The notes under the pieces: model-generated | The model's input: only the letters and a program-made list of their open reading frames with translations | Told to the model about the DNA's origin: nothing | The model's database searches: none | In this document: piece after piece, positions 5,574 to 64,000 of the stretch | Layout: every line of letters begins with the position of its first letter | Position numbering within the stretch: the stretch's first letter is position 1 | Position numbers and translations under genes: made by a program | From: a virus | Taxonomy: Duplodnaviria; Caudoviricetes | DNA length: 64,000 nt | Virus record (IMG/VR): IMGVR_UViG_3300046786_000930 | Location: 4,805 to 68,804 of that record | Reading direction: 5' to 3' (one strand)

Positions 5574-7787
5574 ATGAAGAAATTATTTTTAATTATAGCG
5601 TTTATTTTTGTGGGGTGTATATCGGGACAGAATATTCGCATCGACCAAGTTAAGGAGTTGCCAGACACAATAGCGTATCTTAGGAACCTCCATGCAATGG
5701 GAGATACAAATACAGTACAAGCCTTTATAAGAGATTCTCTCGGAAGGTTTTGGGATTCAACAGAAGTAAAAGCCGCGATAGGCGACAGCACAACCGCAAC
5801 CGATGCAAGATTAAGCGATTCAGTTGGTGTACTCAATACGAGAATAGATTCTGTAATTAACAATTTAGGTGAGGGTGGTGTTGACACACTTACACAAAAT
5901 ATTACTATCCTTAATTATGGGCAGTTTTCTACACCGGAACAATATTTAATCTATCAAAGCGACACTACTGTTGCCATACAAAGATGTGGTGATTCGGTAG
6001 GTACGAGACAAATACTTTTAACAGGACAATATACAATAAGAGATAGCATCAAGTGGGACTTAGCTGGCGGTGAAATGGATATAATTTTTGCCAAAGATGC
6101 AAAGATTACCTCTGCCGATAATGTACCTTCAACCGATTACTATCATCCTATTGGAGAAATTATAATTATAAATGGTAAGCGAGTGGGGATTACTGGTGGG
6201 GAATTGTATGGTTATACTTCGGCAACAAATGTATTCCAGAGTGTTTTGTGTATCAGAGATATAGATATTGTTACTCTTAAAAACTTAACTGTCAGACGTG
6301 GGAAATATGCGGGAACTTTTATAGTAAATCCTCATAATCTTGATGTAGATAATTGTTTCATGGATTCAAGTCATTATGCAAATTTATTAATAGGGAATTC
6401 CAAGCAATCAAATATTTCAAAGGGAGAATATTCTTATGCGGGGTATGATGTAGTTGCTAATCCCGATACTGGATATGGAATAAGTTTTATCGGTAGATAC
6501 GTTTATCCGCCTGGAAGTTCAGGGAACTTTAACAATGAAAATATTACTGTGAATAGTGTAAAAGCAAATTACAACTCTCGTAAAGGAGTAGATGCACACG
6601 GAGGGCAGAACATTACATTTACAGAAAACAAAGTAAAAGGTTTTGGAAGTTGTGGAATTTATGCGGTGAATGAAGATGGTAATACCGGATATGAGAAACA
6701 TGTTAGGAACGTGATAATAAGTAACAACACAGTTACTCAAGACTCTTTATGGTTAGAAGGATTATTAGGCAACAGAACCTCTCTTTATCTAACGACAGGG
6801 AGAACGGTTTTGGATAGTCTTTATTGGTGGAATGCAATCCAAGTAGGAGATTACCAAAGTTCAACAACCACACAGATGTATCCTTCGGGAACATTTACAG
6901 TACAGGGGAATACTTTAGATTCAATGAATTCAAGAGGGGCAAGAGCACCCTTATCTGTATTTGTGGCTATAACAAAATTGGTTGGTTATCCAAGACCACA
7001 AATAGATGCAATTAATATTCTAAACAATACCATTCTATATCCTAATGTAACCACTGATGAATTTGATGGTGAACAAGATGCTGTTATTTATTTTACCAAC
7101 GGTACTGTTCCTCCAAGATTTGTTAATGTAAGCGGAAATAATATTTTTAGAGATACCTTACAAAGCACGGCAAATAATGGAATTAAGTTAGCGTTTACAA
7201 ATCCAGGTTCATGGAATCTTGTAGAGACAAATGATAGTTTGTTTAACCAGATCGTGAATGTAAACAACAATAATGTTTATGGCTATTTTAATTATCCTTT
7301 ATTCATAAGTTCAAACAACATTAAGCAAGTTACGTCCAACAACACTTATAATGGGAATCGACTTGCAGATATGGATGATGCTTATAACGGGGTTAAAAAA
7401 TTTACGTTCCATGCAGTTGCGGCGGGTGATTCAATTACGTTAGTTGATAGTGTGAAAATAACAGCTTCTTTAGATGGGATGACTGTTTATAATATTAAGA
7501 TTACTTCTTCAAATGATGTTGATAAGGGGATTAATGTTTATAATTACATAGCATACGCAAAAGACACAACCACAGTAGAAGGCAACCCAATGGCTACTGC
7601 TGCAACGATTATGAACGAATCTGGAATCGGTGGGTATACAGAAACAGACAGACCTACATTAACATGGAGAACAAGCGGTAATGTAGGCACATTAAAACTA
7701 TTTGATAGTAACAGCGATGGGTATTCAAAATATAATATTGAGATGATAATAACCTCAAGGAACGTACCTTATTGGAGGAGCGAATAA
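5574..7787 (+). CDS. Signal-peptide-bearing right-handed beta-helix (tailspike/pectin-lyase-like) protein
   Basis: MKKLFLIIAFIFVGCISG|Q signal peptide. Asn-rich NITVNSV/NVIISNNTV/NILNNTI beta-helix rungs. Confidence 0.7.
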   Translation: MKKLFLIIAFIFVGCISGQNIRIDQVKELPDTIAYLRNLHAMGDTNTVQAFIRDSLGRFWDSTEVKAAIGDSTTATDARLSDSVGVLNTRIDSVINNLGEGGVDTLTQNITILNYGQFSTPEQYLIYQSDTTVAIQRCGDSVGTRQILLTGQYTIRDSIKWDLAGGEMDIIFAKDAKITSADNVPSTDYYHPIGEIIIINGKRVGITGGELYGYTSATNVFQSVLCIRDIDIVTLKNLTVRRGKYAGTFIVNPHNLDVDNCFMDSSHYANLLIGNSKQSNISKGEYSYAGYDVVANPDTGYGISFIGRYVYPPGSSGNFNNENITVNSVKANYNSRKGVDAHGGQNITFTENKVKGFGSCGIYAVNEDGNTGYEKHVRNVIISNNTVTQDSLWLEGLLGNRTSLYLTTGRTVLDSLYWWNAIQVGDYQSSTTTQMYPSGTFTVQGNTLDSMNSRGARAPLSVFVAITKLVGYPRPQIDAINILNNTILYPNVTTDEFDGEQDAVIYFTNGTVPPRFVNVSGNNIFRDTLQSTANNGIKLAFTNPGSWNLVETNDSLFNQIVNVNNNNVYGYFNYPLFISSNNIKQVTSNNTYNGNRLADMDDAYNGVKKFTFHAVAAGDSITLVDSVKITASLDGMTVYNIKITSSNDVDKGINVYNYIAYAKDTTTVEGNPMATAATIMNESGIGGYTETDRPTLTWRTSGNVGTLKLFDSNSDGYSKYNIEMIITSRNVPYWRSE

Positions 7788-8242
7788 TGAAAAAAATAAT
7801 TTTATTTATAATGCTATTATTTACCTCCTATTCTTTTGCGCAAGATACAAAGTTCTTTGGTACGGTAGAGGCAGATACCTTAGTTGGGTTCAAAGCCGAT
7901 ACCCTAAGCTATTCTTGGGGAATAATGGACACCGTAACAACTGGTGATTTGCCAGGGTGGAAAGTTCCTACTGATATTACAATTATAGAAGTTAGTGGAT
8001 ACACAGATGCTAATACAGTAACTTTTAATATTGAAGAACGGACAGAAGCAACCCCAAATACTGCTGCTGCGACTGATGTCATGGATACCGATTTGGCAGC
8101 AGATGTAAATCAAGAGGAAGCAAGTGGGGTTGATCTTGATAACGTTGCAATAGCAAAAGATTCTTGGTTAGTTCCTACAATTAGTGCAACTGGTGATGTA
8201 GCAATATTTGGAATTACAATACGTTATGTTAAAGTATATTAG
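7787..8242 (+). CDS. Signal-peptide-bearing small beta-sandwich (fibre-associated-like) protein
   Basis: The ATG at 7787 overlaps the upstream stop. MKKIILFIMLLFTSYSFA|Q signal peptide. The C-terminal AIAKDSWLVPTISATGDVAIFGITIRY resembles fibre-associated beta-sandwich domains. Confidence 0.65.
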   Translation: MKKIILFIMLLFTSYSFAQDTKFFGTVEADTLVGFKADTLSYSWGIMDTVTTGDLPGWKVPTDITIIEVSGYTDANTVTFNIEERTEATPNTAAATDVMDTDLAADVNQEEASGVDLDNVAIAKDSWLVPTISATGDVAIFGITIRYVKVY

Positions 8243-11009
8243 TCTAATTTTCATATTGTGTTTTGAACTATTCCCGCAAGGAAATATGCTTGTTAATCGC
8301 AAGCATTATTGGGATAGTTTGGTACTAATAGTTCCTGATACTTCTACGAATATTTACGTAGATGGTAACAATGGGCTTGATGCAAATGATGGATTAACTG
8401 GGGCGACTTCGAAATTGACCTATCCGGCTGGTGAAGCGTTGGTAAATGCAGTAACAGATACAATGTTTTTAACTGGAACGTTTGATTATCCATTTCCCAA
8501 AACCAAGACATTCGTTATCGCCACTTATGGAGATTTTAATTATACGAATGGATTAAACGGATATACTTATGTACCAGGTGCAGAAGGTGGGGCGGTTGTA
8601 GATACGTTTTACGTTGGTTCTGGAACTGATGATAAAACAAGGGCTGGCACTACTGGATTGTTTGATTTGGAATATTTGAATATGGGTGCTCAGTATTCTA
8701 ATGTAAAGGTTGCGACAAGATTTGTGAACGTAGTTGAACGTTCTGGATATGATTCTGCATTGATTGAATACACTGCCTATGATTCTCATACTGCTGATGA
8801 TATTGTTTTAAGATTCTATGGTGAGGATTTGGGAAACCCTCCTACATTCGGAACAGGCTATGCGGACTTTGATGTAAGGTATGAAACACTAACAACTGCT
8901 TATAAAGACACTACATTTCAAACCGACTGGGTTAATGGGACTAATTATAAATTTAGATTAGGCGGTGTTATCGGAGAACTGTTTACAAACTACGCTTATA
9001 CTGGTTCACAAGCAATTACGATATTTAATGTAAATAATGGTTCAACCTCAAGTACTTTTAGAAGTGCAAGTGCTTATGATTTAAGCTCCGGTGCTGAGAA
9101 GGCAAAGCTGATAATTTATTCAGATGGTACTGCTTCTAATGCTTACTATTGGAAAGATCAAACAACTGAGGTTACTGCTGTTTATTTTGGATCTGAATTG
9201 GGAACCGAGAATACAGATAAAAGTTTGATTGATTCTACAAAAGAATGGTGTTGGAGTGGAGATACGCTTTATATTTACGGCGAAGTATTACCACCTTCGG
9301 GAACTGCCGATAAATATGTTTGTGATTTATGTGTAGATGTAGATGCAGTTGATGATTCAGCGACTACTATTGCAGAAGTGAACGCATGGACTTTAGTGGG
9401 TGGGGATACGGTTGCAATTAAAATAAATGAAGTTCGTGATGACGCTATTCTTGTTCCTCAGAACAACGTGGTATATACTTCTTATGGCGGAGATGGGAGA
9501 TACATTTTACAACACTCAGACCTAACAAACGAACAGCACGTAGTAAATGCTCAAAATATAAGCGGAGCAACTATTGAAAATGCGGAGATAATCGGTAAGA
9601 ATTGGGTTATTGTAAATGGGAGTTCTGGTTTGACTTTTGATAATATTTATTGCCATCATTATGAAAACACTAATTATCATTTCCCGCATGATGGACGCGG
9701 AATGTTCACCGCCATTGGTACACAAGCACTATACCTAACTATTCAAAACAGTATCTTTGAAAGTGGATTTCCCATTGCAGCTTCAGAATGCGGAGATCAA
9801 GATTCTGTTTGCACAAGCGATATGTTTTCTCTTTGGAATGCCGGAGGTGGCGGAAGTGGCTATATCTATTTCTACAATAATATTTTTAAGAATGCGCCCC
9901 ATAGTTTAATTGGCATTGGTCAGGGTGGAAGCGAGAAGGTATCTCATCACATTTTAATAAGACTGAATAGGTTCTACAATCAGTATCATCACGGAGTTTA
10001 TGATATAGATCAGGGAACAACTACGGCAAAAGATAGTTGCATAATTGTTGATTTTAATCTTTTTGAACGTAGTGGAAGTGGATTAAGACAAAGTGCAACA
10101 AATAATTTTGTCCAGTATAATAGAGAACTGGGGGCTTTTGGTGTAGCTGGTGGCAGTAATATTGTAAGGTACAATGTAATTAAAAGAACCTCATGCAGAA
10201 GAAATGAATGGAACAATGCTGGTGGAGTGCAGTTTGGCAGTGATATTTATAATCTAAGAATGTATAACAATGTTCTTGATAGTTCTTATGGTATGGCAAT
10301 GAGGTTTATTTATAGTGCGGGAAGCACTAAATTTGAGAACAACTATTTTTTCAACAATGCCTTCACAAGAAGTGGAGACCCTAATTGGGAAACTTATTAT
10401 CCAGGTATTGACGGTGATAGTGTTGCAATAATTTATTGGGATGATAATGCCGGAAGTCCATCAAATAACATTTTTAGTTATAGCTATTTTGGTACATCAA
10501 GTAACAATCTATTAAATCTCTTGGCGGGTGATTTAGAAACAACAAATAGCACCGCGTGGACTGGTGTTACGTTCCAGAATAATCTTAATGGCTATCGCAC
10601 CACTTCAGTATTCGATGCACCAGATGACAGCATTCCAAACTGGACTTACTGGACACCTCAAACAGTAAGAGGTAATTTGTATGATAGTGTTCTGGCTAAT
10701 TACAATGGCAAAGCACCTTTGATAGATGCGGGCAGACCACACACCTACATTAGCGGAACTGTAAATAACGATACCATCCTTGTAACTGATTCAAGAGTAT
10801 TTTTTGACGGCTGGAATTGGCAAGAACTTGAGGGAGATAGTCTTTTAATTGGCACTTATAGAGTTCAAGTAATAGGAATAAACTATACAACAAATTACAT
10901 AGCATTAAGTGGGATAGTTGATGTTGCAGATAACACTCCGGTGTATCTGATTAACCCCTACACACATGATGCTTATAAAGAAACTGAAATAGATATAGGT
11001 TTAGAATGA
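8226..11009 (+). CDS. Signal-peptide-bearing beta-helix (pectin-lyase-like) protein
   Basis: MLKYISLIFILCFELFP|Q signal peptide. It has a YVDGNNGLDANDG motif, repeated FYNNIF/VRYNVI/MYNNVL rungs and APLIDAG near the C-terminus. Confidence 0.7.
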   Translation: MLKYISLIFILCFELFPQGNMLVNRKHYWDSLVLIVPDTSTNIYVDGNNGLDANDGLTGATSKLTYPAGEALVNAVTDTMFLTGTFDYPFPKTKTFVIATYGDFNYTNGLNGYTYVPGAEGGAVVDTFYVGSGTDDKTRAGTTGLFDLEYLNMGAQYSNVKVATRFVNVVERSGYDSALIEYTAYDSHTADDIVLRFYGEDLGNPPTFGTGYADFDVRYETLTTAYKDTTFQTDWVNGTNYKFRLGGVIGELFTNYAYTGSQAITIFNVNNGSTSSTFRSASAYDLSSGAEKAKLIIYSDGTASNAYYWKDQTTEVTAVYFGSELGTENTDKSLIDSTKEWCWSGDTLYIYGEVLPPSGTADKYVCDLCVDVDAVDDSATTIAEVNAWTLVGGDTVAIKINEVRDDAILVPQNNVVYTSYGGDGRYILQHSDLTNEQHVVNAQNISGATIENAEIIGKNWVIVNGSSGLTFDNIYCHHYENTNYHFPHDGRGMFTAIGTQALYLTIQNSIFESGFPIAASECGDQDSVCTSDMFSLWNAGGGGSGYIYFYNNIFKNAPHSLIGIGQGGSEKVSHHILIRLNRFYNQYHHGVYDIDQGTTTAKDSCIIVDFNLFERSGSGLRQSATNNFVQYNRELGAFGVAGGSNIVRYNVIKRTSCRRNEWNNAGGVQFGSDIYNLRMYNNVLDSSYGMAMRFIYSAGSTKFENNYFFNNAFTRSGDPNWETYYPGIDGDSVAIIYWDDNAGSPSNNIFSYSYFGTSSNNLLNLLAGDLETTNSTAWTGVTFQNNLNGYRTTSVFDAPDDSIPNWTYWTPQTVRGNLYDSVLANYNGKAPLIDAGRPHTYISGTVNNDTILVTDSRVFFDGWNWQELEGDSLLIGTYRVQVIGINYTTNYIALSGIVDVADNTPVYLINPYTHDAYKETEIDIGLE

Positions 11010-14000
11010 AAAAATACTTATTTATAATTTTCGCATTGACAACCTTCGCAAGTTTTGGGCAGAGTAACTTATTACTATTCTTTGATGATGACAAAGAAGC
11101 TCCTTCAGTTCCAACCTCACCAAGTGCAGTAGGAACTCCCGAAGTAGTTACTGCGAGTTGGGTAGATCCAACTGCCTTAGATTTGAAATGGATTATAGTT
11201 TACCGTGATGTAACAACAAATCCAACAACTGCAATAGATACTGTTCTAAAGGGAGTTGGTTCTTATACTGATACTCCATTAGTTGCTGGAACAGAATACT
11301 TTTATCGTTTTAGAGCACAAGATTATTCTGGTAATTTATCCGCATACACTTCAACTGTTAGTGATACAGCTAAGGCAATACAGTACGCTGGTGATTATGA
11401 TGGGAGTACGGATTATTTATCATTAGCCACTCCGCCTTTACAAATGATGGGCAAATATAGCTTGCAAGAAACATTCTCAGATGGTGATTACACTACTGGT
11501 AATGCTTGGACTGTTTCTTCTGGTGCTTATGCAGTAACTGATACAGTAGCTATGTATAGCGGACTTACTTATGCTTTAAGATGTGCAACTGCGGGGATAA
11601 TTTCAATCCCTAATAATTGGGCTTATGGATATGTGGCTTTTGATTGGCGTAAAGGTGGTTCGACCAATATAAATTATGTCTATTTAAATAGTAAAAGTTC
11701 AAATACTTCAACTAACGGCTATGCTTTATATACTTCGGCAACTTCAAGGCAAACCCTAAGCATTGTTAATAGTGGGGTACATAATACGTTATTTTATTCT
11801 GGGGCAAGCTATGTAAACAATTTTGTTTCTTACCGTGACAGCATAGTAAGAAACACTAATGGCTCATTTTCCGTTTACATTAAGGGTGGAACATTTGGAG
11901 ATACTTATACTTTAGTTTCAACTACCGGAGGCAGTGGTACTAATCCAGTAACAGACAACACTTACACACAATCAAATTACTTTGTACTTGATTTAGATGC
12001 TGGCGATATGATAGCAAACATTGTCTGTGAATATGGTATGGGCAGTATGGATTTGAATGGACATGAACTTACAAAGTACCCAACTTATAATGCAAGTTTT
12101 GAAGTTGGAGATGAAGTAATAACCAATGGAAGTTTTGGGAGTAATATAACTGACTGGACTGCCGGTGGTTCAACAGCAAAGTGGTATAATACTGATTGGA
12201 ATGCTGTCTCAAGAACAAACGCTATTTTAGACTCGGCAACACTTACAGATCAATCCTATCTCATTGCAACTTATGGGACAACATCTGGTGTTAGATATAA
12301 ATTAACTTATACATATTATATCCCAGCAACTAACACAACTTGTGTTGCAGTAAAAACAAGATATATTGGCGGGAGTAATCCTTATGGAACAATTCAAACA
12401 GTAGTTGGTACATGGACAACCGCATCTGAATATGTTACTCCATCCACAAATTATACTCAGATTCGATTTTATCAATTTGATGCTGGTGGAGCGTATAATA
12501 CTTCTGCTGGCGATAAAATCTACATTGACGATGTATCAATCAAACCAGTACCATATTGGGAAGGTAGTGGCACAATGTCTGTTGATACCACAACAGAGCA
12601 AAAGCAAAGTGGTAGTGGAGGAGCGAAGTTTGTTCAGAGTTTGGGGAGTGATTTAGCTTTATCTCATGGTGATTTTACTGATGCAGCAGATACATTATGG
12701 TGGACAGATGGAAGTGATGCTTGGATTATGACTGGTGGAGTTGCAAGTGCTTCGGGTACATCTTCTCATTTAAGAGGAGCAATTGGCGGGTTGGCAAATA
12801 ATAAATATATGATTGAATTTGATGCAACGATTACATCCGGTAGTTTGTTATGGCAAATAGGTGGTTCGCATTCTGAGAGTGCTCATTCAGTAACGTCTGG
12901 ACATAATATTGGGTATTGTAATACAAGTGGAAGTGGAGATATTTATTTTATCCCTTCATCTTTTGTCGGAACACTTGATAATATAGTTATTTATAAATCT
13001 TCTGGCGACACCACAACGAACTATGCAAAACTTGACCACAGTTATTATAATACTTTAGTTGCTGGTGAAAAAACAACTCTTGAGTATTGGGCACAAGAGG
13101 ATGGTAGTAATGGAAGTAATTTAATACCAGATTCAGCTTCTACTTTTAGCACTTATCCAGGTGGAGGAATAACTTATTGGACTGCGGTAAGAGGAACGCG
13201 TGCATGGAGTACCGCAGATTCGTCATTATTATGGACTTACGATGGTTCAAGTAGTAGTCCAAGAGGTATAAGTAAATCTGGAAATTTAACGGTTGGAAAA
13301 CTTTACAAACTAACCTTTAGGGCAAAAGCAGATTCTAATAGAAATTATACGCTTAGTTTTCTTGGGGATATAACTTCTGGTGGCTATGGCGCAGTAACTC
13401 CTAATTTAACTACTGCTTGGCAAAATTATCAAAAATATTTTACTGCAACAGCAACAAGTTTTTATCTTGGTAGTGCGAGCACATCTGGGATGACTTTAGA
13501 TGATAGTGTTATGATAGATAACATAGTATTGCAAGAAATCACCAAAACCACTCACACAGTATCAGTAGGCGGTAAAGTATTAGGCACGACAGATACTCTT
13601 TCATGTATTCCAGGTGTATTTGAGAAGGTAGTATTTAACTTCCTCAATGATGCAACAACTGTTAATGGTGACATAAAGATTTACAAGAACCAAGCTTCTA
13701 TTGGCTACATGGACGGAAATTCAATCACGCAAGCAAAAGACTTGATGGTGAATGTGTGGGTAAAAACGAGTAATGTTGGTTCAAATTTACCGATTATCTA
13801 TTATCGGGGAATAAGCGGTGCCTTTTGGCAAGTGCTAAGAAGTTCGAGCAATTATTATCGAGCAGACTTAAATGATGGTGTAACTAATGTTACACTTAAC
13901 ACAGCGTCAACTTATACAAGTGATATTTACGTGTTTGTAAGTTTTCTGATCAGTCGTACAACTAATGGCTTGGTGTATATCAATGGAGCTCTTTCAAATA

Positions 14001-14353: not shown

Positions 14354-14689
14354 ATGAATAATTTAACAGTATGGCACGGAATCTCGGTATTGTCCGTAAT
14401 TTTGAGTACAGCAATAATGATTGTTGGGTATTTTATTAAGAAATGGATGAAAAGAGTGGAGGTACAGTTGGAGAAGTTAGAAGAGAATTATAAGACAATT
14501 GAAACAGAACAAAACCAGCAGAAACTAAATTACATTGATAGATTCCAAAGTGTTGAACTAAAGATTGAACGTACTGAGAAAAACATTATAAATGTAATCA
14601 ACGATTTGAAAGACCATATTACTGAAACATTTGTATCAAAGAGTTTTTGCCAATTTATTCAAGAACATAAGCCAAAAGGAAATTTTTAG
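14354..14689 (+). CDS. Membrane protein with N-terminal TM and coiled coil; holin/antiholin-like
   Basis: Hydrophobic ISVLSVILSTAIMIVGYFI followed by a coiled coil, upstream of the endolysin. Confidence 0.45.
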   Translation: MNNLTVWHGISVLSVILSTAIMIVGYFIKKWMKRVEVQLEKLEENYKTIETEQNQQKLNYIDRFQSVELKIERTEKNIINVINDLKDHITETFVSKSFCQFIQEHKPKGNF

Positions 14690-14779
14690 TGACGGTAAGA
14701 ATACCATTCTTAAAAATGACACAAAACAAGCATAGCATGCCCCCAAACATTCTTGCCGTCATTGTTTTTAGAGGACAAA

Positions 14780-15175: not shown

Positions 15176-15188
15176 GAGGAATAGTAAA

Positions 15189-15647: not shown

Positions 15648-15676
15648 TTTATTAACTTAAAATAAAGGAGCACAAA

Positions 15677-16024: not shown

Positions 16025-16030
16025 AACAAT

Positions 16031-50353: not shown

Positions 50354-50392
50354 CTGATTTTATAAAATTAAAAACTATTTGAGGGAAAGATA

Positions 50393-53620: not shown

Positions 53621-55759
53621 ATGAAAAACCGATCTTTCAAAATAAACGATGAAGATTGTCTCTTCAACATGATGAGGCTTTGGACTTCGCTTGATCCTAT
53701 CTTTGAGCAACTTAATAAGGACCAGACCAGAGCATTTGATATGACAGTTAGTTCAAGTCAATGGCTCCAAGAGTGGAAGGATGCGTATGAACAGAAGGGC
53801 AGGCAAGTAAGCAGCTACAACCTTCTCAGGCAAGTAATTAACGTTATCAACGCAATAGAATTGAGCAACCGGAAAAAGATAATAGCCAAACCATCTAGCG
53901 GAGGTGACACAGAGCTCGCGGGAATAGTTACAGAAGTTCTTGATCACTTTCTCCATCGCACAAAGTTTGACTGGAGGAGAACGAAAGTATTTAACAACAG
54001 CATCATTGCAAAGTTCGGGGTTTATACTTTGGGTTGGAGTTTTGAGAATAACAAGTATGGTGACTTAGAGATTGGTGATTGCGATCCTCGGACGGTAAGG
54101 TTTGAACCTAACTACGCAGATCCTACTTGGGAGCAAGCTGGTTACGTTATGCGGAAACACCAACTAAGCTTTGATGAGATCTTCAACAAATTTGCGGGTA
54201 ACGATGAGGAAATGCAAGAGGCACTTATCAGCGAGGGGAAAGTTTTCTACGATTATAACCCGGACAAAAGAGATAAGTACCTAACACAAAAACTCAAACA
54301 CCTATTTCAAGCTGTGTATGAAACGATAACTGGCAGCAGCCCTAACAGCACAGTCAGCAAGTTTATGAATTGGTATGATCCGCTAACAGGCAAATTTGAT
54401 GTTTTAGAGTTGCACGAAAAAAGAACAGAGCGGAGATTAGTAATCGGGGACAGCAAAAGACCGAATAAACTGTTCGACATTACCGACAGCTACCATGGAG
54501 AGTTTGAGCGACTTAATGAGAAACCACCCGATGGGTACAGGTACAATAACGGTGAGATAATTAACAGCATTAAAGAGCGATACGGCTTTGATGGTGAGCC
54601 TGATATGGAACTCACCACTAATAAATATGTAACAGCAGTAATCCCGGCATTCCGGCTGAAGGTAAATGAGCAGCCCTATCCATTCAAGATTAAGGGTTAT
54701 GTTTATATTCCTCAGTATTGCTATGACTATCATGCCGACACACTGAAGGCACAGAGCGTTATTGACGATTTAATTGATCCACAAAGCTCTTATAACAAAA
54801 TGATTAGTCTGAATCAAGAATTATTGTGGAAGTACGCGAACAATGGCTGGATACTTGATGCTAATGCGATTAACGGTTATGAGGAAGATTGGGAGAGCGG
54901 AAGATTGGCTCCTTATCGCAGAGTGAGACCGGGATACATTAACTTGATAAAGCCCGAAATTCAGCAGACCGTATCCCCGGACCTGATAAAGGGGATGCAA
55001 GAAACACCCGCGATCATGGATAGGATTGCGAACACATCGGAATCCATAAGAGGCAGAATTGAGAAGGGCGTAACTTCCGGCAAACATTTTAATGCAGTAA
55101 GAAGTCAGGAAGAAAAATCATTCAGCTATATGTTTAACAACGTAAGCAACTCTGCTTTGTCTGTAGCCGAATCAGGCTGGGCAATAATCCAGAACAGAGT
55201 TACGGTTCCAAGGATATTCAGGATAACGCAAGATGATGGCCAAGAAAAAGAAGTAAGGGTAAATGAACAGCAGTACGGAATCGATGTAGAAACCGGCAAC
55301 CTGATAAGGAAAGTAAAGAACGACATCACCATAGGCGAGTATGACTTCGAAATCAGCGATACACCGTATAGCGGCAATGCTAAGGAAATGGAATTCTACA
55401 AGTTGAGTGAGTTGCTTGATGCGCTGATATCGATAGGTACACCGAAGTCCATGGAGAGAGCAGACGCAATAATGCCGATACTCGTTCAAGCCGGTAGTTT
55501 CCCATTTGGTAATGAAATTAAAAAAACTTGGGAACAGATTGACTCCGGTAGTCCTCAGCAGCAACAGTTACAGCAGATGATGATGGCTATTCAGCAGATC
55601 ATGGCAAAGCTCGGAGTGAAGGGACAGGAAGAAACCGTAAGAGGACAGATTCTCGATAACACGAAAAAAGATATTGAGATCAAGCAAATGCTTAAGGACA
55701 ATATCCTTAACGTAAAGCGTGGTAACGGTAAAGCGAAACCACAGTATCAGTTGAATTGA
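53621..55759 (+). CDS. Portal protein (P22-like)
   Basis: Position after terL, size, the SYNLLRQVIN...NRKKIIAKP...D.ELA pattern, an IDDLIDPQ..YNK segment and a Q-rich C-terminal barrel. Confidence 0.85.
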   Translation: MKNRSFKINDEDCLFNMMRLWTSLDPIFEQLNKDQTRAFDMTVSSSQWLQEWKDAYEQKGRQVSSYNLLRQVINVINAIELSNRKKIIAKPSSGGDTELAGIVTEVLDHFLHRTKFDWRRTKVFNNSIIAKFGVYTLGWSFENNKYGDLEIGDCDPRTVRFEPNYADPTWEQAGYVMRKHQLSFDEIFNKFAGNDEEMQEALISEGKVFYDYNPDKRDKYLTQKLKHLFQAVYETITGSSPNSTVSKFMNWYDPLTGKFDVLELHEKRTERRLVIGDSKRPNKLFDITDSYHGEFERLNEKPPDGYRYNNGEIINSIKERYGFDGEPDMELTTNKYVTAVIPAFRLKVNEQPYPFKIKGYVYIPQYCYDYHADTLKAQSVIDDLIDPQSSYNKMISLNQELLWKYANNGWILDANAINGYEEDWESGRLAPYRRVRPGYINLIKPEIQQTVSPDLIKGMQETPAIMDRIANTSESIRGRIEKGVTSGKHFNAVRSQEEKSFSYMFNNVSNSALSVAESGWAIIQNRVTVPRIFRITQDDGQEKEVRVNEQQYGIDVETGNLIRKVKNDITIGEYDFEISDTPYSGNAKEMEFYKLSELLDALISIGTPKSMERADAIMPILVQAGSFPFGNEIKKTWEQIDSGSPQQQQLQQMMMAIQQIMAKLGVKGQEETVRGQILDNTKKDIEIKQMLKDNILNVKRGNGKAKPQYQLN

Positions 55760-56354: not shown

Positions 56355-56750
56355 ATGAAATACAGAATCATACCAACACAAGATCGAGTGCTAATCAAAG
56401 TGCTGCCGGAACATCCGGATAAAACACCGGGAGGAATATATATCCCCGAAGCCGTCAAAGAATCGCCTCAAGAAATAGGCGTAGTTGTTGATGTTGGCCC
56501 TGGCAGATACACGGAGAAGGGACATTTCGTTACGCCAACAGTAAGCGTGGGTGATAAGGTGCTATATAACGGCATGGCGGGGAGTAAGCACAACCTGGAT
56601 AATCCGATGGGATTTGAGGATCACGCGCTCATCCGCGATGGTGACATCCTTGCTGTTCTCGTAGATGCGGGTGAAGGTGAAGTGGACGTAACGGCTCCAG
56701 GTCCAGACTACGGAAAAACAGATGCGGTAGCTGACCTCGATTACGAGTGA
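56355..56750 (+). CDS. groES: Co-chaperonin GroES with an acidic C-terminal extension
   Basis: IPTQDRVLIK, KTPGGIYIP, GVVVDVGPG, VSVGDKVLY and LIRDGDILAV. Confidence 0.92.
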   Translation: MKYRIIPTQDRVLIKVLPEHPDKTPGGIYIPEAVKESPQEIGVVVDVGPGRYTEKGHFVTPTVSVGDKVLYNGMAGSKHNLDNPMGFEDHALIRDGDILAVLVDAGEGEVDVTAPGPDYGKTDAVADLDYE

Positions 56751-57746: not shown

Positions 57747-57844
57747 ACTTTGATAAAGAGATATTTGTTGGTAGGATAGTAGCGGTGATATTTTTTCTGC
57801 TAATGCTATTCGTTCTGTTTGCACCATATTTTGTTAAGTGTTGA
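57740..57844 (+). CDS. 34-aa TM mini-protein (not in the ORF track)
   Basis: MLNFDKEIFVGRIVAVIFFLLMLFVLFAPYFVKC; its TGA overlaps the ATG at 57844. Confidence 0.4.
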   Translation: MLNFDKEIFVGRIVAVIFFLLMLFVLFAPYFVKC

Positions 57845-58575
57845 TGGAAACGTTTGACGCAATACTGATAACTGTTTTCGGCTTATTGTTCATGCTTGGC
57901 TATGTAGTAATAGGACTGGCATTAGTTTACGGCATTTTTAAATTAATTTTGAGAGTTAAGGATATGAAATTTTACGGCAAAACACTTTGGTTCAAAAGAG
58001 GCGTAACAGTACAGATAAGTTTACTTTATGCGTGTAACTTGGCATGTAGCTATTGTACTTTAGAAATGCCAACCGGAATAAGGCCAACAGCGAAACAAAG
58101 CACACTTGATGAGTGGAAGGAGTTTATTAAAAACTTCCCGGTAAAGATAAAAGAAGTTTACGTTAGCGGAGGCGAACCTACCTTAATTAAGTGGCTACCC
58201 GAACTATGCAACTGGCTGCTTGATGAGGGTTATCATGTTTCTGTATTCACGGATCTTTATGATCCTCAGTTATTGCTGAAGGTGAAGAACAGTTATCGCT
58301 TTCAGATAATTTCTACGTTTCATCACGATTGGGAAGAAAAATTAATTTCACATCATTTAACCGAAGAGAAACAATTTAAGTATAGTTATTCCTTACTAAA
58401 GAATGCCGGTTATCGAATCGAAGTAGATGAAATCGGCTACAAAGTTTTACCTTACAGCAGATTAAAACCGTTTATCGGAATGGATGGACTGAAAGATTCG
58501 GAAGCGTTTAGAGTGAGTCCAGACCTACAGATATTCAATTCGTGCTATGATCATTTTTTACAAAAATCTAAATGA
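57844..58575 (+). CDS. Radical SAM enzyme, possibly with an N-terminal TM anchor
   Basis: CNLACSYC (CxxxCxxC) and VSGGEP motifs. A hydrophobic N-terminal segment precedes a possible second start at about 57963. Confidence 0.85.
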   Translation: METFDAILITVFGLLFMLGYVVIGLALVYGIFKLILRVKDMKFYGKTLWFKRGVTVQISLLYACNLACSYCTLEMPTGIRPTAKQSTLDEWKEFIKNFPVKIKEVYVSGGEPTLIKWLPELCNWLLDEGYHVSVFTDLYDPQLLLKVKNSYRFQIISTFHHDWEEKLISHHLTEEKQFKYSYSLLKNAGYRIEVDEIGYKVLPYSRLKPFIGMDGLKDSEAFRVSPDLQIFNSCYDHFLQKSK

Positions 58576-58850
58576 AAAAAACTTTAGTTCGTTGGAAAAT
58601 ATATACAGATAGGGCACGTTGGTATGTAGCGTATGTGCAATTTCTTATGATGGTTATAGTTGTATTTCAAACAAGAGGAGTTTTACTTGATTGGTGGTTA
58701 ATAATTTTATTGATCCCGGTAGTGGTAATTGCTTTTATTGTGATAGGGTTTATAGATGTTAAAATATTTAAGTTATTAGAAGCCGAGCAACAAAAATATG
58801 CAGAAGAAAACCCTACGCTTCAACAAATACTAAAAGAAGTTAAAAAATGA
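58572..58850 (+). CDS. Small two-TM membrane protein
   Basis: Two hydrophobic segments and ATGA overlaps. Confidence 0.6.
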   Translation: MKKTLVRWKIYTDRARWYVAYVQFLMMVIVVFQTRGVLLDWWLIILLIPVVVIAFIVIGFIDVKIFKLLEAEQQKYAEENPTLQQILKEVKK

Positions 58851-59821
58851 GATTTGTTAAGATAACTAGATATTATAGCCCATTCTTGCGAGAGTATCTT
58901 AAAAAAAATCCCGGGATGGAATATCAAACCTATCCTTATCAACACAAACACCTCATGAATCAAAGATTTGGCTGGTCGGACTATTATTCAAAACATCTCA
59001 TAGCTTTGGGTTATGAAGCGACAGAAATTGTTGCTAACTCGCATCTTCAAAGAGCATGGAGTAATCATCATAAAATCTATGGCGATAATCTATTGCTCAA
59101 ACAGTTACAATATTTGCAACCTGAAATAGTTTTTTTTGAGGATGTTGGCTGTGTGATAAGAAACCTAAAATATATAGTGCCCTCCGTAAAATTGGTAATA
59201 GGATACTGCTGTTCGCCCCTAACTTATGACTCAGAGGATTTTGACTTAATGTTGACTTGCAGCAAGTTCTTCCCCGGTGATTATGTTTTACCTCATGCTT
59301 TTGAACCAATAAAAATAGACAATACCGAAGAAGAAGATTTTGTTTTCTTTGGTTCATTTATTCGTGGGAAGAATCAGCACGACAAACGAATACAGATCGT
59401 TAAGGAGATAAAGAAACTAAAAATCTATGGCAACAAGGGCGGGTACTTTAATTCGTTATTCTCCGATAAGTATGAGAAACCTCTTTACGGAATTGATATG
59501 CACAAACAACTTGCAAAAGCAAAGATAGGATTTAATATTCACGGAGGATTACCAACACAAGCATGTAATATGAGAATGTTTGAGACCACAGGCTTAAGAG
59601 TGTGTTTAGTAACAGAGAACTTACCAAATCGATATTTTAATGAAGATCAGATAGTGACTTATAGGTCAGCAGATGAATGTAACGAAAAAGTGACATGGCT
59701 ACTTAATCATCCGAAGGAACGAAAAGAAATTGCGCTTCGAGGACAGAAGAGAACACTTGAAAACCATATCTTCGAAATCAGAGCGCAGCAACTCGATAAA
59801 ATAATAAAGGCACATATATGA
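58847..59821 (+). CDS. GT-B glycosyltransferase (CgeB/YkvP-like)
   Basis: AKIGFNIH...NMRMFETTG...VTY.S.DE..EK..WLL.HP.ER.EIA.RGQ.RTL..H pattern. Confidence 0.85.
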   Translation: MRFVKITRYYSPFLREYLKKNPGMEYQTYPYQHKHLMNQRFGWSDYYSKHLIALGYEATEIVANSHLQRAWSNHHKIYGDNLLLKQLQYLQPEIVFFEDVGCVIRNLKYIVPSVKLVIGYCCSPLTYDSEDFDLMLTCSKFFPGDYVLPHAFEPIKIDNTEEEDFVFFGSFIRGKNQHDKRIQIVKEIKKLKIYGNKGGYFNSLFSDKYEKPLYGIDMHKQLAKAKIGFNIHGGLPTQACNMRMFETTGLRVCLVTENLPNRYFNEDQIVTYRSADECNEKVTWLLNHPKERKEIALRGQKRTLENHIFEIRAQQLDKIIKAHI

Positions 59822-60432
59822 ATATACTCGTACTTAGTCCCCATACCGATGATTGTGAATTAGGTTGTGGTGGTTCCTTGGTCAAATGGAAGGAAGAAGG
59901 GCATAATATATTCCCCGCAGTATTTTCATTATGTGAGGAATCAATCCCAGAAGGATTTGATAGCGATGCAACATATCAAGAATTTCTTATGAATATAAAA
60001 CATTATGGTTTTGTTGATTATTTTGTATATGATTTTAAGGTAAGAAATTTCCCAAGCGATAGACAGAAAATATTGAATATAATGGTAAATCTAAGAATTA
60101 CTTTTGAGCCAAATTTAGTAGTCGGCCCCTCTCTTTACGATACTCACCAAGATCATAAAACCTTAGCAGAAGAAATGCAAAGGGCTTTTAGATGTTCGAT
60201 AATTTCTTATGAGTTACCCTACACAACGTTAAATTTTAACCCACAGTATTATGTGCCCCTGGAAAAGAAACATATTGAGAAGAAAAGAGAATTGATTGAG
60301 AATTATAAATCTCAATTAGTAAAGGGAAAGTATAGTCCCGAACTTATGGAATCTGTTGCACGAATGAGAGGGAGTCAGATAGATAAAGAATTTGCCGAAG
60401 CATTTGAAATAATAAGGAGTATAGAAAAATGA
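59818..60432 (+). CDS. PIG-L/LmbE family N-acetyl-sugar deacetylase
   Basis: LSPHTDDCELGCGG and HQDH metal motifs. Confidence 0.9.
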   Translation: MNILVLSPHTDDCELGCGGSLVKWKEEGHNIFPAVFSLCEESIPEGFDSDATYQEFLMNIKHYGFVDYFVYDFKVRNFPSDRQKILNIMVNLRITFEPNLVVGPSLYDTHQDHKTLAEEMQRAFRCSIISYELPYTTLNFNPQYYVPLEKKHIEKKRELIENYKSQLVKGKYSPELMESVARMRGSQIDKEFAEAFEIIRSIEK

Positions 60433-60680
60433 AATACCGTAAAAAACCAGTAGTAATTGAGGCGATACAATTTACTGGCGGAGAAATTAGCGAAGATGCT
60501 ATCGCTGATTTTATGGATCAAAATATTAGGGTTATTGGTCGCAAATATATCGAAATTGACACCTTAGAGGGGACTATGACTGCAGACTTAAATGACTATA
60601 TTATTAAAGGGATTGCTGGAGAATTTTATCCTTGCAAACCAGATATATTTGAACAAACCTATGAACCAGTAAATGAATAG
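60429..60680 (+). CDS. Conserved small phage protein (YRKKPVVIEA family)
   Basis: YRKKPVVIEAIQF...TLEG.M.A...DYIIKG..GEFYPCKPDIFEQTY. Confidence 0.8.
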   Translation: MKYRKKPVVIEAIQFTGGEISEDAIADFMDQNIRVIGRKYIEIDTLEGTMTADLNDYIIKGIAGEFYPCKPDIFEQTYEPVNE

Positions 60681-61650
60681 CATTAAAGTATTAGTCACTG
60701 GTGCGGGTGCGCCCGGATTTTGGGGAACACATTATTCTTTGGTGAATAATTATGATAATCGCAAGATTGAAATAATAGGAACTGATTGTAAAGATAAAGT
60801 ATATGGTTCTCTATTTTGTAAGGTTTATAAAATACCAAAAGCAACTGATGAAAATTACATAGAGGCGGTTGAAGAAATTTATGATAAAGAAAACATAAAC
60901 GTGATGCTTCCTCAAAATACAGCCGAACTTGAGCAACTTACTCATAGTAAGGTGAACGTTGCTGGTAGAGATTATTTGGCTAATGATAAATCTTTGATAA
61001 TGAGAACGGCTGAAGCCATAGGGATTCCTTATCCAAAGTATTTTGAAGTTAAAAATAAACAAGAATTATTCCAAGCGTTATTTGAACTTAGAAACAAAAG
61101 GATAGTAATAAAACCAACTATTTCAAATGGTTCTAGAGGGATGAGAATAATAGACGATAATCTTAATTATAAAAAAATGTTTCTCGAAGAAAAACTTCAT
61201 CACTATATAACGGTAAGTCAATTATCTGAATTACTAGAAGACGAATTCAAACCTATGCTTGTAATGGAATACATAGAAGGGTATGAATATACGGTTGATT
61301 GTTTCCGCAGCAAAGATAGGTTCGTAGCAATCCCACGTAAAAGGAATGAAATTAAGAACGGCATAAGTTGGGAAACATCGGTTGAAAAAAATGACGAGTT
61401 AGTGGAATACTCAAAGAAACTGGCAGAAGCATTATACCTAAAATTTGCATTCGGATTCCAATTCATAAACAATAAAATAATTGAATGTAACCCAAGAGTT
61501 CAGGGAACAATGGTTGCTTCAACGCTTGCCGGAGCGAATTTGATATATTCAGCGATAAAGCTGGCATTAAAAGAACCAATCCCAGAATTTAACATTAACT
61601 GGAATTCAAGAATAATAAGATATTCCGTATGCGAGGAGTATAATGTATAA
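60673..61650 (+). CDS. ATP-grasp ligase (short carbamoyl-phosphate-synthase-like, polysaccharide-locus type)
   Basis: VLVTGAG N-terminus, VIKP..SNGSRG, MEYIEG.EYTVD and IIECNPRVQG. Confidence 0.85.
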   Translation: MNSIKVLVTGAGAPGFWGTHYSLVNNYDNRKIEIIGTDCKDKVYGSLFCKVYKIPKATDENYIEAVEEIYDKENINVMLPQNTAELEQLTHSKVNVAGRDYLANDKSLIMRTAEAIGIPYPKYFEVKNKQELFQALFELRNKRIVIKPTISNGSRGMRIIDDNLNYKKMFLEEKLHHYITVSQLSELLEDEFKPMLVMEYIEGYEYTVDCFRSKDRFVAIPRKRNEIKNGISWETSVEKNDELVEYSKKLAEALYLKFAFGFQFINNKIIECNPRVQGTMVASTLAGANLIYSAIKLALKEPIPEFNINWNSRIIRYSVCEEYNV

Positions 61651-62410
61651 ACAAACCAAACAAGGACACTTTAGTTATCCAACAAGAATACTAACCTTCG
61701 CTGACATGGGAATAGGGAACTTTGTTTTTTACTTGCCGGTGCTGAGAGCATTGGCACAGCACGACCTTACTGTTTACTGTCCGAACAAAGAATTGAGAGT
61801 TATTTTAGATTATAACATAAAGGCGAAATATGAAATTCAAGGTAAGTTTGATATATCCGTTAATAATTTTCTTAGCCTGGATAAGAGACACCTGGCGAAG
61901 ATTTGGAATGTACCTCAAAGGATTGGGCACGTGGCGTGGTGGCGGAAGAGACAAATGATCTTTACTGATAAAGTACCAATGGATCAAGATAAAGGTGAGG
62001 AAGAATCTAACTGTGACTTATTAAAACCATTAGGGATAGACCCAATATTTGAAAAAATAAAATCCCCAGACTTCAGTATGCCGAGTTACGATATAGTAAT
62101 TTCGCGGTATAGTGCAGATAAAAATAAAGAATGGCAGCATTGGGATGAACTGATAAGCCGTTTGCTCTTTGTTAAGGCAGGGGTAAAAGTTCTTGATCCA
62201 CAAGAATATTCTTTAATCGCAGTTTGCGACATGATTTCAAAATGTAAATTGTTCATCGGTAATGATTCCGGCATAGCCAAGATAGCCGCTAATTTAGGGA
62301 TAAAGACCATCCAGATATTCCGTTGGTGGACAGATTGTTTTGTTCGGTGCAGAGTAAGGGGCATAAACTTAATTGAACCTTCAGTAAAAGATGTTTTAGA
62401 TTGCTTATGA
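61643..62410 (+). CDS. GT9 (heptosyltransferase-like) glycosyltransferase
   Basis: GIGNFVFYLPVLRAL and LFIGNDSGIAKIAANLGIKTIQIF motifs. Confidence 0.85.
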   Translation: MYKQTKQGHFSYPTRILTFADMGIGNFVFYLPVLRALAQHDLTVYCPNKELRVILDYNIKAKYEIQGKFDISVNNFLSLDKRHLAKIWNVPQRIGHVAWWRKRQMIFTDKVPMDQDKGEEESNCDLLKPLGIDPIFEKIKSPDFSMPSYDIVISRYSADKNKEWQHWDELISRLLFVKAGVKVLDPQEYSLIAVCDMISKCKLFIGNDSGIAKIAANLGIKTIQIFRWWTDCFVRCRVRGINLIEPSVKDVLDCL

Positions 62411-62612: not shown

Positions 62613-63068
62613 ATGATCGAAATAAATAAAAGTGCAACGGCAGATACAAGAAGTTGTGACTGGTCAAAGGTTAGCAGAGAAACCTTATTGGAGAGTAGCA
62701 AGCAACACATAGGAGACATAGCTTTGGGATTGAAATATTTTAAGAATCTAATAGACAATGCTATTGAGAAACATGATTTTGATAAGATAACTGAAGTTGA
62801 TTGGTTTCATTCGGATTTCAAAACTGGATTCAAAGAAACTGGTTGGTGGACTAATCACCGGAAGGTTAATCGGCATCATTTATTACAGGCCGATGGAGTA
62901 CCGGAAGATGTAAATTTAATTGATGTTTTGGATATGATAGTTGATTGTGTAATGGCTGGGATGGCAAGAACTGGGAATGTATATCCATTAGAAATTAGTC
63001 CAGAAGTTTTGATGAGGGCGTTTAATAATACAGCCAAATTATTACAAAGTCAAATTCAAGTAAAATGA
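62613..63068 (+). CDS. HD-like protein (DUF5662-like)
   Basis: HDFDK, HRKVNRHH and LIDVLDMIVDCVMAG..R motifs. Confidence 0.65.
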   Translation: MIEINKSATADTRSCDWSKVSRETLLESSKQHIGDIALGLKYFKNLIDNAIEKHDFDKITEVDWFHSDFKTGFKETGWWTNHRKVNRHHLLQADGVPEDVNLIDVLDMIVDCVMAGMARTGNVYPLEISPEVLMRAFNNTAKLLQSQIQVK

Positions 63069-64000
63069 AAACCGACTGGATTAATAGCGAACCTGTATTT
63101 TACAATACCAAGACTGGCAAAGCATCAAAGAATATGCTTGATGTTATGGATACCTATGAGTTTGATAATGAAGGATTATACGATTATCTGAACTTTGGCT
63201 ATCAAGCATTTGAGCAATCAGCGATTAAGAATGTCAGAAAACTTCCGCACTCATCAGAAACAATCGGTGATGGACATTTCTGGCGATATAGTGATCCGAT
63301 TGATAAATATATCGGCAAAACAAGTTCGGTTGATGAAGCCATAGAAACACTCGGAAATCATGTAAGAAATTTCGAGAAATCAAATAATGAAAAACTTCTA
63401 TTGCTTTTAAGTGGTGGGTATGACTCAAGATTCTTAGCTCACTTCATACAGGACAAGTCAAGATTAACAGCGTTTACTTGTGATATCAGCATCGGGAATA
63501 AAAACTCGCACGAAGTTATGAGGGCAAAAGAAGTTTGTAAAAGGTTAGGGATAAAGTGGGGCTTCCTAAACATTGATAATTACTTCCATAGATTCTTCAC
63601 AGGATTGGTATTTGAGAATTTCGGGATCGAAGTGAATTCTGGTGCTGGGATAACATTTGAAATGATCCACAAAATCTATAACCTTGATGGCATGGTTCTT
63701 CACGGTAGCGTTGGTGATTGGTGGCGAGTGCAGAAGGTAAAGATAAATCCTCCTAAAGATCACTTAGATTTCGGTTCGTTATTTTTTAATCATGGAACCG
63801 GCATACCGCAAGAATTCATTAAGATAAAAACTAACCACGAAAACAAACAACTTGAATTTGAACAGAACATAAAACGGCTGCGAGAAGATGAACTCTTCAG
63901 AATAGTTTATGCGCGGAGAGGGAGAATAGGATGCTCAAGTTTAGGCATGAGGATAATTGAGAAATATTTTAAAGCATACACACCCTATTATGATATTGAT
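63065..64000 (+). CDS. Asparagine-synthetase-like ATP pyrophosphatase/amidoligase, 3'-truncated by the window
   Basis: My translation gives MKTDWINSEPVFY...LLLSGGYDSR...LHGSVGDWW...AYTPYYDID with no stop before the window end. It has no N-terminal catalytic Cys. Confidence 0.8.
   Translation, partial: MKTDWINSEPVFYNTKTGKASKNMLDVMDTYEFDNEGLYDYLNFGYQAFEQSAIKNVRKLPHSSETIGDGHFWRYSDPIDKYIGKTSSVDEAIETLGNHVRNFEKSNNEKLLLLLSGGYDSRFLAHFIQDKSRLTAFTCDISIGNKNSHEVMRAKEVCKRLGIKWGFLNIDNYFHRFFTGLVFENFGIEVNSGAGITFEMIHKIYNLDGMVLHGSVGDWWRVQKVKINPPKDHLDFGSLFFNHGTGIPQEFIKIKTNHENKQLEFEQNIKRLREDELFRIVYARRGRIGCSSLGMRIIEKYFKAYTPYYDID

Follow-up and report, generated by a model that had tools for sequence, protein, structure and literature searches.

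The window analyzed here is a 64,000-nucleotide stretch of the IMG/VR record IMGVR_UViG_3300046786_000930 (bases 4805–68804 of a 68,804-bp contig), whose sequence is that of a complete podovirus (68.7 kb) of a Bacteroidota host, and it carries two gene sets that bear on glycans. One is a block of genes for large, tailspike-like proteins with predicted export signals of the host type; the other is a cassette of putative glycan-modifying enzymes lodged between the portal and scaffold genes. We favor, at slightly better than an even chance, the reading that these are two separate adaptations: exported spikes that would be glycosylated by the host, and a glycan cassette that would act independently of them. 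A sequence-only reading of the same DNA had proposed that the cassette feeds the glycosylation of the exported proteins; this is not supported, as each of the two modules occurs without the other.

Eight of the phage's proteins begin with a predicted Bacteroidota-type Sec signal peptide, called by our own hydrophobicity and charge heuristic, and we refer to proteins with such leaders as exported. Seven of their open reading frames (ORFs), starting at 5574, 7787, 8226, 11006, 15189, 48439, and 48900, lie inside the window; the eighth, at genome position 1484, lies outside it. In the predicted leaders, the n-region is basic, the core is hydrophobic, and Gln comes next (..ISG|Q, ..SFA|Q, ..LFP|Q, ..SFG|Q, and ..LKA|Q), and all eight end at Gln or a lipobox. 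Gln after the signal peptide is the Q-rule of Bacteroidetes signal peptidase I (SPase I) (PMC5837995). The exported block is flanked by a leaderless fibre-like gene and by lysis genes. These features are given below by window position, with counts of D-S/T-[AILVMT], the Bacteroidota O-glycosylation motif (PMC6120980):

2628–5567, + strand: conserved tail-fibre-like protein of 979 amino acids (aa) that precedes the exported block; PHROG tail-fibre matches, no signal peptide
5574–7787, + strand: exported tailspike-like beta-helix protein, 737 aa; ..ISG|Q leader and also a lipobox-like VGC; 18 motifs versus 3.3 expected
7787–8242, + strand: small exported protein, 151 aa, with a ..SFA|Q signal peptide; conserved in L061
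8226–11009, + strand: exported beta-helix protein (Pel9A/DUF1565-like by Atlas features and structure), 927 aa; 14 motifs versus 4.1 expected
11006–14311, + strand: exported FN3/CBM/LamG-like protein (Atlas LamG_3/CBM_4_9), 1101 aa; 11 motifs versus 6.4 expected
14354–16543, + strand: lysis block, with transmembrane (TM) proteins at 14354, 14753, and 15677 and an SLT-domain lysin at 16031–16543
15189–15647, + strand: exported 152-aa protein within the lysis block; signal peptide; 4 motifs versus 0.5 expected
17140–18003, + strand: 287-aa protein without a signal peptide; Pfam BppL_N (E 1.8e-10), PHROG tail/virion matches
48439–49367, + strand: two small signal-peptide proteins, by leader calls

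The whole exported block, leaders included, is kept in a relative (L061, 74% identical), whose homologue of the 11006 protein has precomputed Pfam matches to CBM_4_9 and Laminin_G_3. The 5574 protein has 72 homologues, many with signal peptides. The leaderless 2628–5567 protein has homologues in all four complete relatives taken whole for comparison (G001–G004; G000 is the phage studied here) and holds 2 motifs versus 4.6 expected, while the 48900–49367 protein combines a lipobox and a C-terminal TM helix with 5 motifs (0.6 expected). From its matches, the 17140–18003 protein is a candidate receptor-binding protein made in the cytoplasm.

The O-glycosylation motif is strongly enriched in the exported set, with 61 occurrences observed versus 17.6 expected (~3.5-fold, z = 11.2), as against 27 observed versus 42.9 expected (z = −2.6) in the remaining 56 proteins; for six control motifs, the counts lie within ~2 standard deviations of expectation. 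The high sequon density claimed in the sequence-only reading thus stands for this motif, and in exported proteins only. It does not stand for the N-glycosylation sequon N-x-S/T, which is at expectation (43 observed versus 47.8 expected), and the D/E-x-N-x-S/T sequon is not enriched either. The reverse of the O-glycosylation motif is over-represented in the phage's non-exported proteins (65 versus 43.1 expected).

Among 65 full-length homologues in the beta-helix family, the motif is enriched 2.27-fold (z = 12) in the 31 with a signal peptide and 1.40-fold in the 34 without (Mann-Whitney p = 0.006), the latter beginning like ordinary tail fibres; it is not enriched in high-GC signal-peptide homologues from other phyla. 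We also examined 400 kb of an Ignavibacteriales metagenome-assembled genome (MAG) that contains a related prophage and likely represents the host clade. There, signal-peptide proteins are enriched 1.89-fold (z = 8.3) versus 1.05-fold for cytoplasmic proteins, and Gln follows 44 of 61 signal peptides. Enrichment is also seen in small exported proteins of other folds, and the beta-helix fold therefore does not account for the motif excess. Taken together, the homologue, host-clade, and small-protein controls point to selection on the motif that is tied to export. The motif density of the phage's exported proteins (3.5-fold) is about twice that of exported proteins from the host clade (1.9-fold). 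The statistics support the expectation, drawn from sequence, that the exported spikes would be glycosylated by the host O-glycosylation system. The four large and several small proteins would reach the periplasm through Sec leaders cleaved before Gln, and host general O-glycosylation would modify them at D-S/T-[AILVMT], selection having raised the motif some 3.5-fold over chance. No T9SS (type IX secretion) sorting domain was found on them by Pfam, and they should therefore stay periplasmic until lysis.

The AF2 (AlphaFold2) model of the 5574 protein (28 homologues; pLDDT 79.5) is helical in its N-terminal region, followed by a beta-helix and, at the C terminus, a beta-sandwich. In a Foldseek comparison with the PDB, the top 48 matches listed are all phage tailspike depolymerases (E 1.9e-10 to 1e-6), and by this model the protein has a tailspike-depolymerase fold. 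The model and the leaders bear out the exported, appendage-like proteins noted in the sequence-only reading. Residues 30–110, where a particle-binding domain would lie, are helical and of low model confidence. Neither Pfam nor PHROG matched any of the four large exported proteins; by their Atlas features, the 8226 and 11006 proteins resemble Pel9A-type beta-helix and LamG/CBM proteins. The large exported proteins would be tailspike-like proteins that degrade or bind polysaccharides. An unrelated siphovirus encodes, at the tail-fibre position, an 839-aa exported SGNH/GDSL hydrolase (L062:14026-16545) with 18 motifs versus 3.8 expected. Its mature N terminus, Q-N-I-K-x-N-Q-I-K-D-L-x-D-T, resembles that of the 5574 protein; as a shared "docking" motif the resemblance is suggestive by eye and not significant (E 0.43).

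The glycan cassette runs from 57838 to the window end, with neighboring genes overlapping by 4–8 bases (GT, glycosyltransferase):

57838–58575, + strand: radical SAM enzyme (Pfam Radical_SAM); CxxxCxxC at residue 66, predicted N-terminal TM helix
58572–58850, + strand: 92-aa protein with two TM helices (2-TM), with translational coupling to the GT; shares 58% identity with the ORF that directly precedes the GT homologue in L043
58847–59821, + strand: CgeB-like GT (Pfam Glyco_trans_1_2, E 8e-20)
59818–60432, + strand: PIG-L family de-N-acetylase (Pfam E 2.6e-10), 65% identical to a gene in L049
60429–60680, + strand: 83-aa ORF in the inserted block, no family match
60673–61650, + strand: ATP-grasp ligase (ATPgrasp_Ter/ATP-grasp_3; PylC-like N terminus), Pfam E 1.2e-28; 899 homologues
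61643–62410, + strand: GT9-like protein, 255 aa (Pfam Glyco_transf_9, E 1.4e-7, residues 190–227 only, 38 residues)
62613–63068, + strand: 151-aa protein, weak DUF5662 match
63065–64000 and past the window end, + strand: PP-loop (SGGYDS) AsnB-like amidotransferase domain (Asn_synthase/NAD_synthase), ~450 aa in all

The cluster of glycan-tailoring enzymes described in the sequence-only reading is thus confirmed by Pfam (radical SAM, GT, PIG-L, ATP-grasp, GT9-like, AsnB-like). Its membrane-anchored members are also recovered, as a predicted TM helix on the radical SAM enzyme, the 2-TM protein, and two TM proteins after the AsnB-like gene. The radical SAM start codon is uncertain and could be Met43; the 70%-identical orthologue in L092 lacks the N-terminal 44 residues. 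Phage homologues of the CgeB-like GT are 54%–58% identical and bacterial ones 35%–39%. The GT9-like match covers only the C-terminal nucleotide-sugar region. The AsnB-like protein lacks a glutaminase domain and continues over the assembly repeat, and downstream of it lie the two TM proteins, an exported sequon-rich 190-aa protein, and then the scaffold and capsid genes. No NCBIfam model matched the cassette proteins at its curated cut-off, PDB sequence searches with the GT, GT9-like, and ATP-grasp proteins found no specific relative, and, even with E allowed up to 1, Pfam gave no match to GtrA, GtrB, or GT-C on the cluster or the membrane proteins that flank it. A literature search for phages that combine PIG-L, ATP-grasp, and GT turned up no paper. 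As to chemistry, an N-acetylhexosamine would be transferred, its N-acetyl group removed, and the free amine acylated, with further glycosylation and amidation to follow. Late expression of the cluster would be in keeping with its position; scans for a Bacteroidetes-type promoter pattern, sigma-70 promoters, and terminators were all at chance level and hence give no transcript map.

Two side observations concern the cassette and its surroundings. The GT9-like protein (window 61643–61690) and an unrelated Methyltransf_11 protein of a SU10-like phage (L046:3507-3550) share the N-terminal peptide K-x-T-K-Q-G-H-F-S/A-Y, which may mark a recombination junction or serve cassette enzymes as a common docking peptide. 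Four related phages, with or without a cassette, encode a member of a conserved family of small exported sequon-bearing proteins (159–190 aa, ..AQ|T) directly upstream of the scaffold gene: L051:1484-2056 (the genome studied here, just upstream of the window), L001:18159-18695, L002:16345-16836, and L043:17013-17492. The AF2 model of the small exported protein beside the scaffold gene (pLDDT 52) is too poor to classify. In the unrelated siphovirus, the capsid gene is directly followed by one for an analogous signal-peptide protein (L062:1603-2106).

The cassette appears to be a mosaic, in which a five-gene mobile block would have entered an older set that consists of the radical SAM, GT9-like, and PP-loop amidotransferase genes. 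In L092 (67% portal identity), the radical SAM gene (70% identical) is directly followed by the GT9-like gene (72% identical), which marks the five genes at 58572–61650 as an insertion. By sequence comparison, this block (2-TM protein, CgeB-like GT, PIG-L, 83-aa ORF, and ATP-grasp) is a mobile insertion common to unrelated phages. The 2-TM and GT pair (58% and 54% identical) lies upstream of the terminase in L043. In a SU10-like podovirus (L046/L049), the GT (58%) is upstream of the terminase, and the capsid and adaptor genes enclose PIG-L (65%), ATP-grasp (57%), and an additional GT. On two IMG/VR contigs the genes adjoin a portal, as PIG-L, ATP-grasp, CgeB-like GT, and PHP in L086 and as PIG-L, ATP-grasp, and, by eye, a HAD-like ORF in L085. 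The L085 portal is nearest to those of Clostridia phages and the L086 portal to those of Proteobacteria phages; from this, the two probably infect Clostridia and Proteobacteria, hosts not known for the Bacteroidota O-glycosylation system. In bacteria and methanogens, the PIG-L/ATP-grasp pair (44%–49% identical) is adjacent within surface-polysaccharide loci with NeuB, Wzx, WbqC, and GTs, and bacterial GT homologues of 406–411 aa adjoin Wzx flippases.

Among relatives, the gap between portal and scaffold genes is a variable slot, filled as follows:

G001: methyltransferase and Stealth_CR2
G002: GT4, methyltransferase, GT2, and Stealth-like
G004: FkbM methyltransferase, pyruvyl transferase, and Stealth-like
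L002: radical SAM and Methyltransf_21
G003 and L001: no recognizable glycan enzyme

A Ser/Thr-rich C-terminal capsid tail is found in five of five relatives with a Stealth-type cassette, as an extension of 5–8 residues after a conserved ..P-x-x-x-W end, and in none of six genomes without that cassette (G000 included), one of which has a Pro-rich capsid end. The comparison set L006/L007 (G001), L009, L011 (G002), G004, and L059 against L012, L014, L016, L017 (G003), L001, and L055. In a portal tree the Stealth-type carriers fall within one clade, in which a nested lineage has lost both cassette and tail, which amounts to about two concordant events. This suggests that the capsid C terminus of these relatives receives a Stealth-type (sugar-phosphate) modification and supports a capsid-directed role for the slot. 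As a side observation, the slot of the GT-less L001 holds a gene (L001:15743-16726) for a 327-aa membrane protein whose N terminus, ..L-W-I-D-E-A-F-F, resembles by eye a GT-C/ArnT-type start; it has no Pfam match on record.

The link between the cassette and the exported-protein pathway is the weakest part of the sequence-only reading. In its full form, the cassette would alter an undecaprenyl-linked O-glycan on the cytoplasmic side, and the host flippase and O-oligosaccharyltransferase (OTase) would place the phage-specific glycan on the spikes. When co-occurrence was examined, the two modules were largely independent: exported sequon-bearing proteins are present in L001 and G003, neither of which has a cassette, and motif enrichment among relatives shows no trend with cassette presence. 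Homologues of either module were found in none of G001–G004, L001, and L002. Every relative in the slot comparison has at least one exported sequon-bearing protein, and because such proteins are universal among these phages, co-occurrence is itself uninformative. The GT/PIG-L/ATP-grasp triad also occurs in phages that probably infect other phyla, the small exported protein beside the cassette is kept in the cassette-less L001, and the cluster contains no priming transferase, flippase, or OTase. These observations lead us to regard the proposal as quite improbable, even though it has points in its favor: the conserved 2-TM partner of the GT in L043, the bacterial GT homologues beside Wzx, the higher sequon density of the phage's exported proteins than of the host clade's, the exported sequon-rich protein just downstream of the cassette, and the occurrence of the same classes (GTs, methyltransferases, and AsnB) in Bacteroidota O-glycosylation clusters (PMC6120980). 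A two-compartment assembly, in which spikes bearing a cassette-tailored O-glycan dock on cytoplasm-built particles only when lysis mixes the compartments, seems to us just as improbable. Whether the exported spikes join the virion at all is a separate matter. At lysis they would dock on released particles, to which we give roughly even chances, or act as free enzymes. That they never join it, and instead serve as free depolymerases and lectins, periplasmic or released, with a part in removing capsule or debris at lysis or in destroying receptors, competes only with the docking step and falls somewhat short of an even chance. Candidate leaderless fibres do exist (the 2628–5567 protein and the 17140–18003 protein with BppL_N), the exported genes lie directly next to the lysis cassette, this slot is taken in relatives by fibre-like genes that lack signal peptides, and tailed-phage particles assemble in the cytoplasm. 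Yet according to the database record, the signal-peptide proteins gp085–087 of Cellulophaga phage phi18:3 were detected in virions by tandem mass spectrometry (MS/MS), the leaderless beta-helix homologues start as ordinary tail fibres do, and an unrelated siphovirus has a signal-peptide homologue right after its baseplate genes.

For the cassette, we rank a cytoplasmic virion protein first among possible acceptors, as a tentative choice; a host lipid-linked or envelope glycan comes second and is unlikely even with the sequence-only version counted in, which makes up a small part of it; DNA or a small molecule comes last. Remodeling of host lipopolysaccharide, capsule, or general O-glycan, for receptor masking against superinfection or easier release and not directed at the phage's exported proteins, would explain the membrane-associated cassette members, the homologues in O-antigen- or capsule-type loci with NeuB, Wzx, and WbqC, and the highly variable enzyme content at one slot, which is as expected for strain-specific surface glycans. 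It fits poorly with the lack of any Gtr-like flippase, bactoprenol GT, or GT-C protein, with the placement of the cassette inside the head module in several lineages, and with the capsid-tail covariation in relatives; in addition, seroconversion is typical of temperate phages, and this phage shows no integrase. We consider it distinctly unlikely. The least probable reading, for which we see only a very slim chance, is that the target is phage DNA, or that the cassette produces a soluble metabolite (an unusual nucleotide sugar or a thiol-like conjugate, for example). The L043 GT adjoins DNA methyltransferases and ArdA, the PP-loop and radical SAM proteins have weak QueC/QueE-like matches, and the GT/PIG-L/ligase logic resembles bacillithiol synthesis; however, the QueC/QueE matches are far below curated cut-offs and the cassette belongs to the late head module rather than to the replication module. 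No hydroxymethyl-pyrimidine enzyme, DpdA/TGT, or nucleotide-metabolism gene was found among the proteins scanned (~20 small ORFs were outside the scan) and a C5 cytosine DNA methylase is encoded, which makes DNA an unlikely acceptor.

Several points weigh against our preferred reading of two separate adaptations with a virion-directed cassette. This phage's capsid has no Ser/Thr tail, and no other of its virion proteins has a Ser/Thr-rich end. The GT has its conserved 2-TM partner in L043, the radical SAM enzyme is possibly membrane-anchored and TM proteins flank the cluster, bacterial GT homologues stand beside Wzx, and the PIG-L/ATP-grasp pair occurs in surface-polysaccharide loci, all of which would fit a lipid-linked acceptor at the membrane. 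Co-occurrence was judged on five complete genomes and some fragments, the host assignment of L085 and L086 is based on 28%–39% portal identity, and the signal-peptide calls are heuristic; export and glycosylation are read from sequence.

The contig begins and ends with the same 127 bases, an exact terminal repeat typical of circular assembly, from which we take the phage genome to be complete. Nearly all genes are on the + strand, and the GC content is ~0.38. Other landmarks are:

51824–53326, + strand: candidate large terminase; no Pfam match, 25%–32% identical to the ORF that immediately precedes the portal in relatives
53621–55759, + strand: P22-like portal (Pfam P22_portal, E 1.9e-58), syntenic with relatives
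56355–56750, + strand: Cpn10 (GroES-like) gene (Pfam Cpn10, E 1.9e-22)

A Phage_capsid_3-type capsid gene lies just upstream of the window in the genome. Against 50,697 GenBank phage records, megablast with a 24-kb query and tblastn with the portal found no close phage, the only matches being distant ones to the portal, and tblastn of three exported proteins, the GT, and the ATP-grasp protein against the same records gave no matches. Metagenomes contain 69 portal relatives. MAGs of Ignavibacteriales, Sphingobacteriaceae, and Bacteroidales carry relatives, one of these inside a 2.17-Mb contig. As side observations, the window encodes a polyvalent protein of 4453 aa (19854–33215) with PBECR5 nuclease, 2H phosphoesterase/Acb1-like, and RadC-JAB domains, homologous giant genes being present in four of four complete relatives, and a 92-nt tRNA-Tyr (GTA) gene at 50263–50354 separates the early from the late region.

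In the usual view, the appendages of tailed phages are synthesized and attached in the cytoplasm. Here, a tailspike-fold family found in several unrelated phages of Bacteroidota, a dominant phylum of gut, soil, and sea, carries a predicted host export signal together with a selected excess of an O-glycosylation motif. If the spikes are exported, glycosylated, and still parts of the virion, views of assembly, host range, and spike stability would have to be revised, and attempts to express such depolymerases would also be affected. Literature searches on exported, glycosylated phage spikes, and on tail fibres of Bacteroidetes phages that are exported or glycosylated, found no description of them. 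Glycan cassettes inside head operons appear to recur and have hardly been studied, and the covariation of Stealth cassette and capsid tail could be tested as an instance of virion glycosylation in phages other than actinobacteriophages.

The closest parallel to the exported block is the general O-glycosylation of Bacteroidota, which likewise combines a Sec signal peptide with a three-residue motif whose enrichment is confined to exported proteins; here the substrates are phage-encoded and tailspike-like, and known from sequence. The 5574 protein shares its beta-helix and C-terminal beta-sandwich architecture with the tailspike depolymerases of Sf6, HK620, Acinetobacter phages AM24 and Fri1, and Dettilon (gp208). 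Those spikes are leaderless, made and assembled in the cytoplasm, and have a known particle-binding domain at the N terminus, whereas the 5574 protein has a predicted cleavable signal peptide and an N terminus that is helical and sequon-dense. The Cellulophaga phages phi18:3 and phi46:3 (Pachyviridae; KC821620 and KC821622) are ~70-kb podoviruses that encode cpn10, as here, and have large proteins with ..Q|x leaders just upstream of their lysis genes (gp085–087 and gp079–083), a similar arrangement. The GenBank record annotates phi18:3 gp085–087 as structural by MS/MS; homologues of gp086 carry a pectate lyase annotation. These proteins have signal peptides ending ..Q and no sequence similarity to the exported proteins studied here, and the motif that is enriched here is depleted in them (3 versus 15.6 expected in one phage and 3 versus 9.7 in the other), a pattern that would suit avoidance of glycosylation in that host; the 48 kb of the phi46:3 record examined carry no annotated GT. 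Prophages of P. gingivalis encode five Q-rule signal-peptide proteins of unknown function that have been read as modifiers of the host envelope (PMC10367356). They share with the present case the Bacteroidetes-specific SPase I/Gln rule in phage genes, but the phages are temperate, and neither tailspike folds nor sequon statistics were reported for them.

For the cassette, the mechanism nearest to the sequence-only proposal is the Gtr-type O-antigen glucosylation of temperate enterobacterial phages, which alters a periplasm-facing glycan by way of a lipid-linked sugar; its target is the host O-antigen and not phage proteins, and no GtrA, GtrB, or GT-C homologue was found here. In the bacillithiol and mycothiol pathways (BshA-BshB-BshC and MshA-MshB-MshC), a GT adds GlcNAc, a PIG-L protein deacetylates it, and a ligase acylates the product, the same order as suggested for the cassette. 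The best NCBIfam match of the cassette's PIG-L protein is BshB1. These scores are far below family cut-offs, however, the ligase here is of the ATP-grasp type, and bacterial homologues are found in surface-polysaccharide loci, not thiol pathways. In the passage of PMC11600133 that cites Freeman et al. 2023, cassette enzymes of the phage Corndog are stated to alter both capsid and tail tube. Its enzyme families (TylF, GT2-like, and GT25) differ from those here (CgeB-like, PIG-L, ATP-grasp, GT9-like, radical SAM, and AsnB-like), and, unlike Corndog, this phage has membrane-associated cassette members and no Ser/Thr tail on its capsid, its cassette being known from genes. By position, Corndog is the best-documented analogue: we confirmed its gene order as portal gp34, TylF-type methyltransferase gp35, gp36, GT2-like gp37, GT25 gp38, and protease, so that gp35–38, with methyltransferase and GT genes, separate the portal from the head gene that comes next, in a slot similar to the one occupied here.

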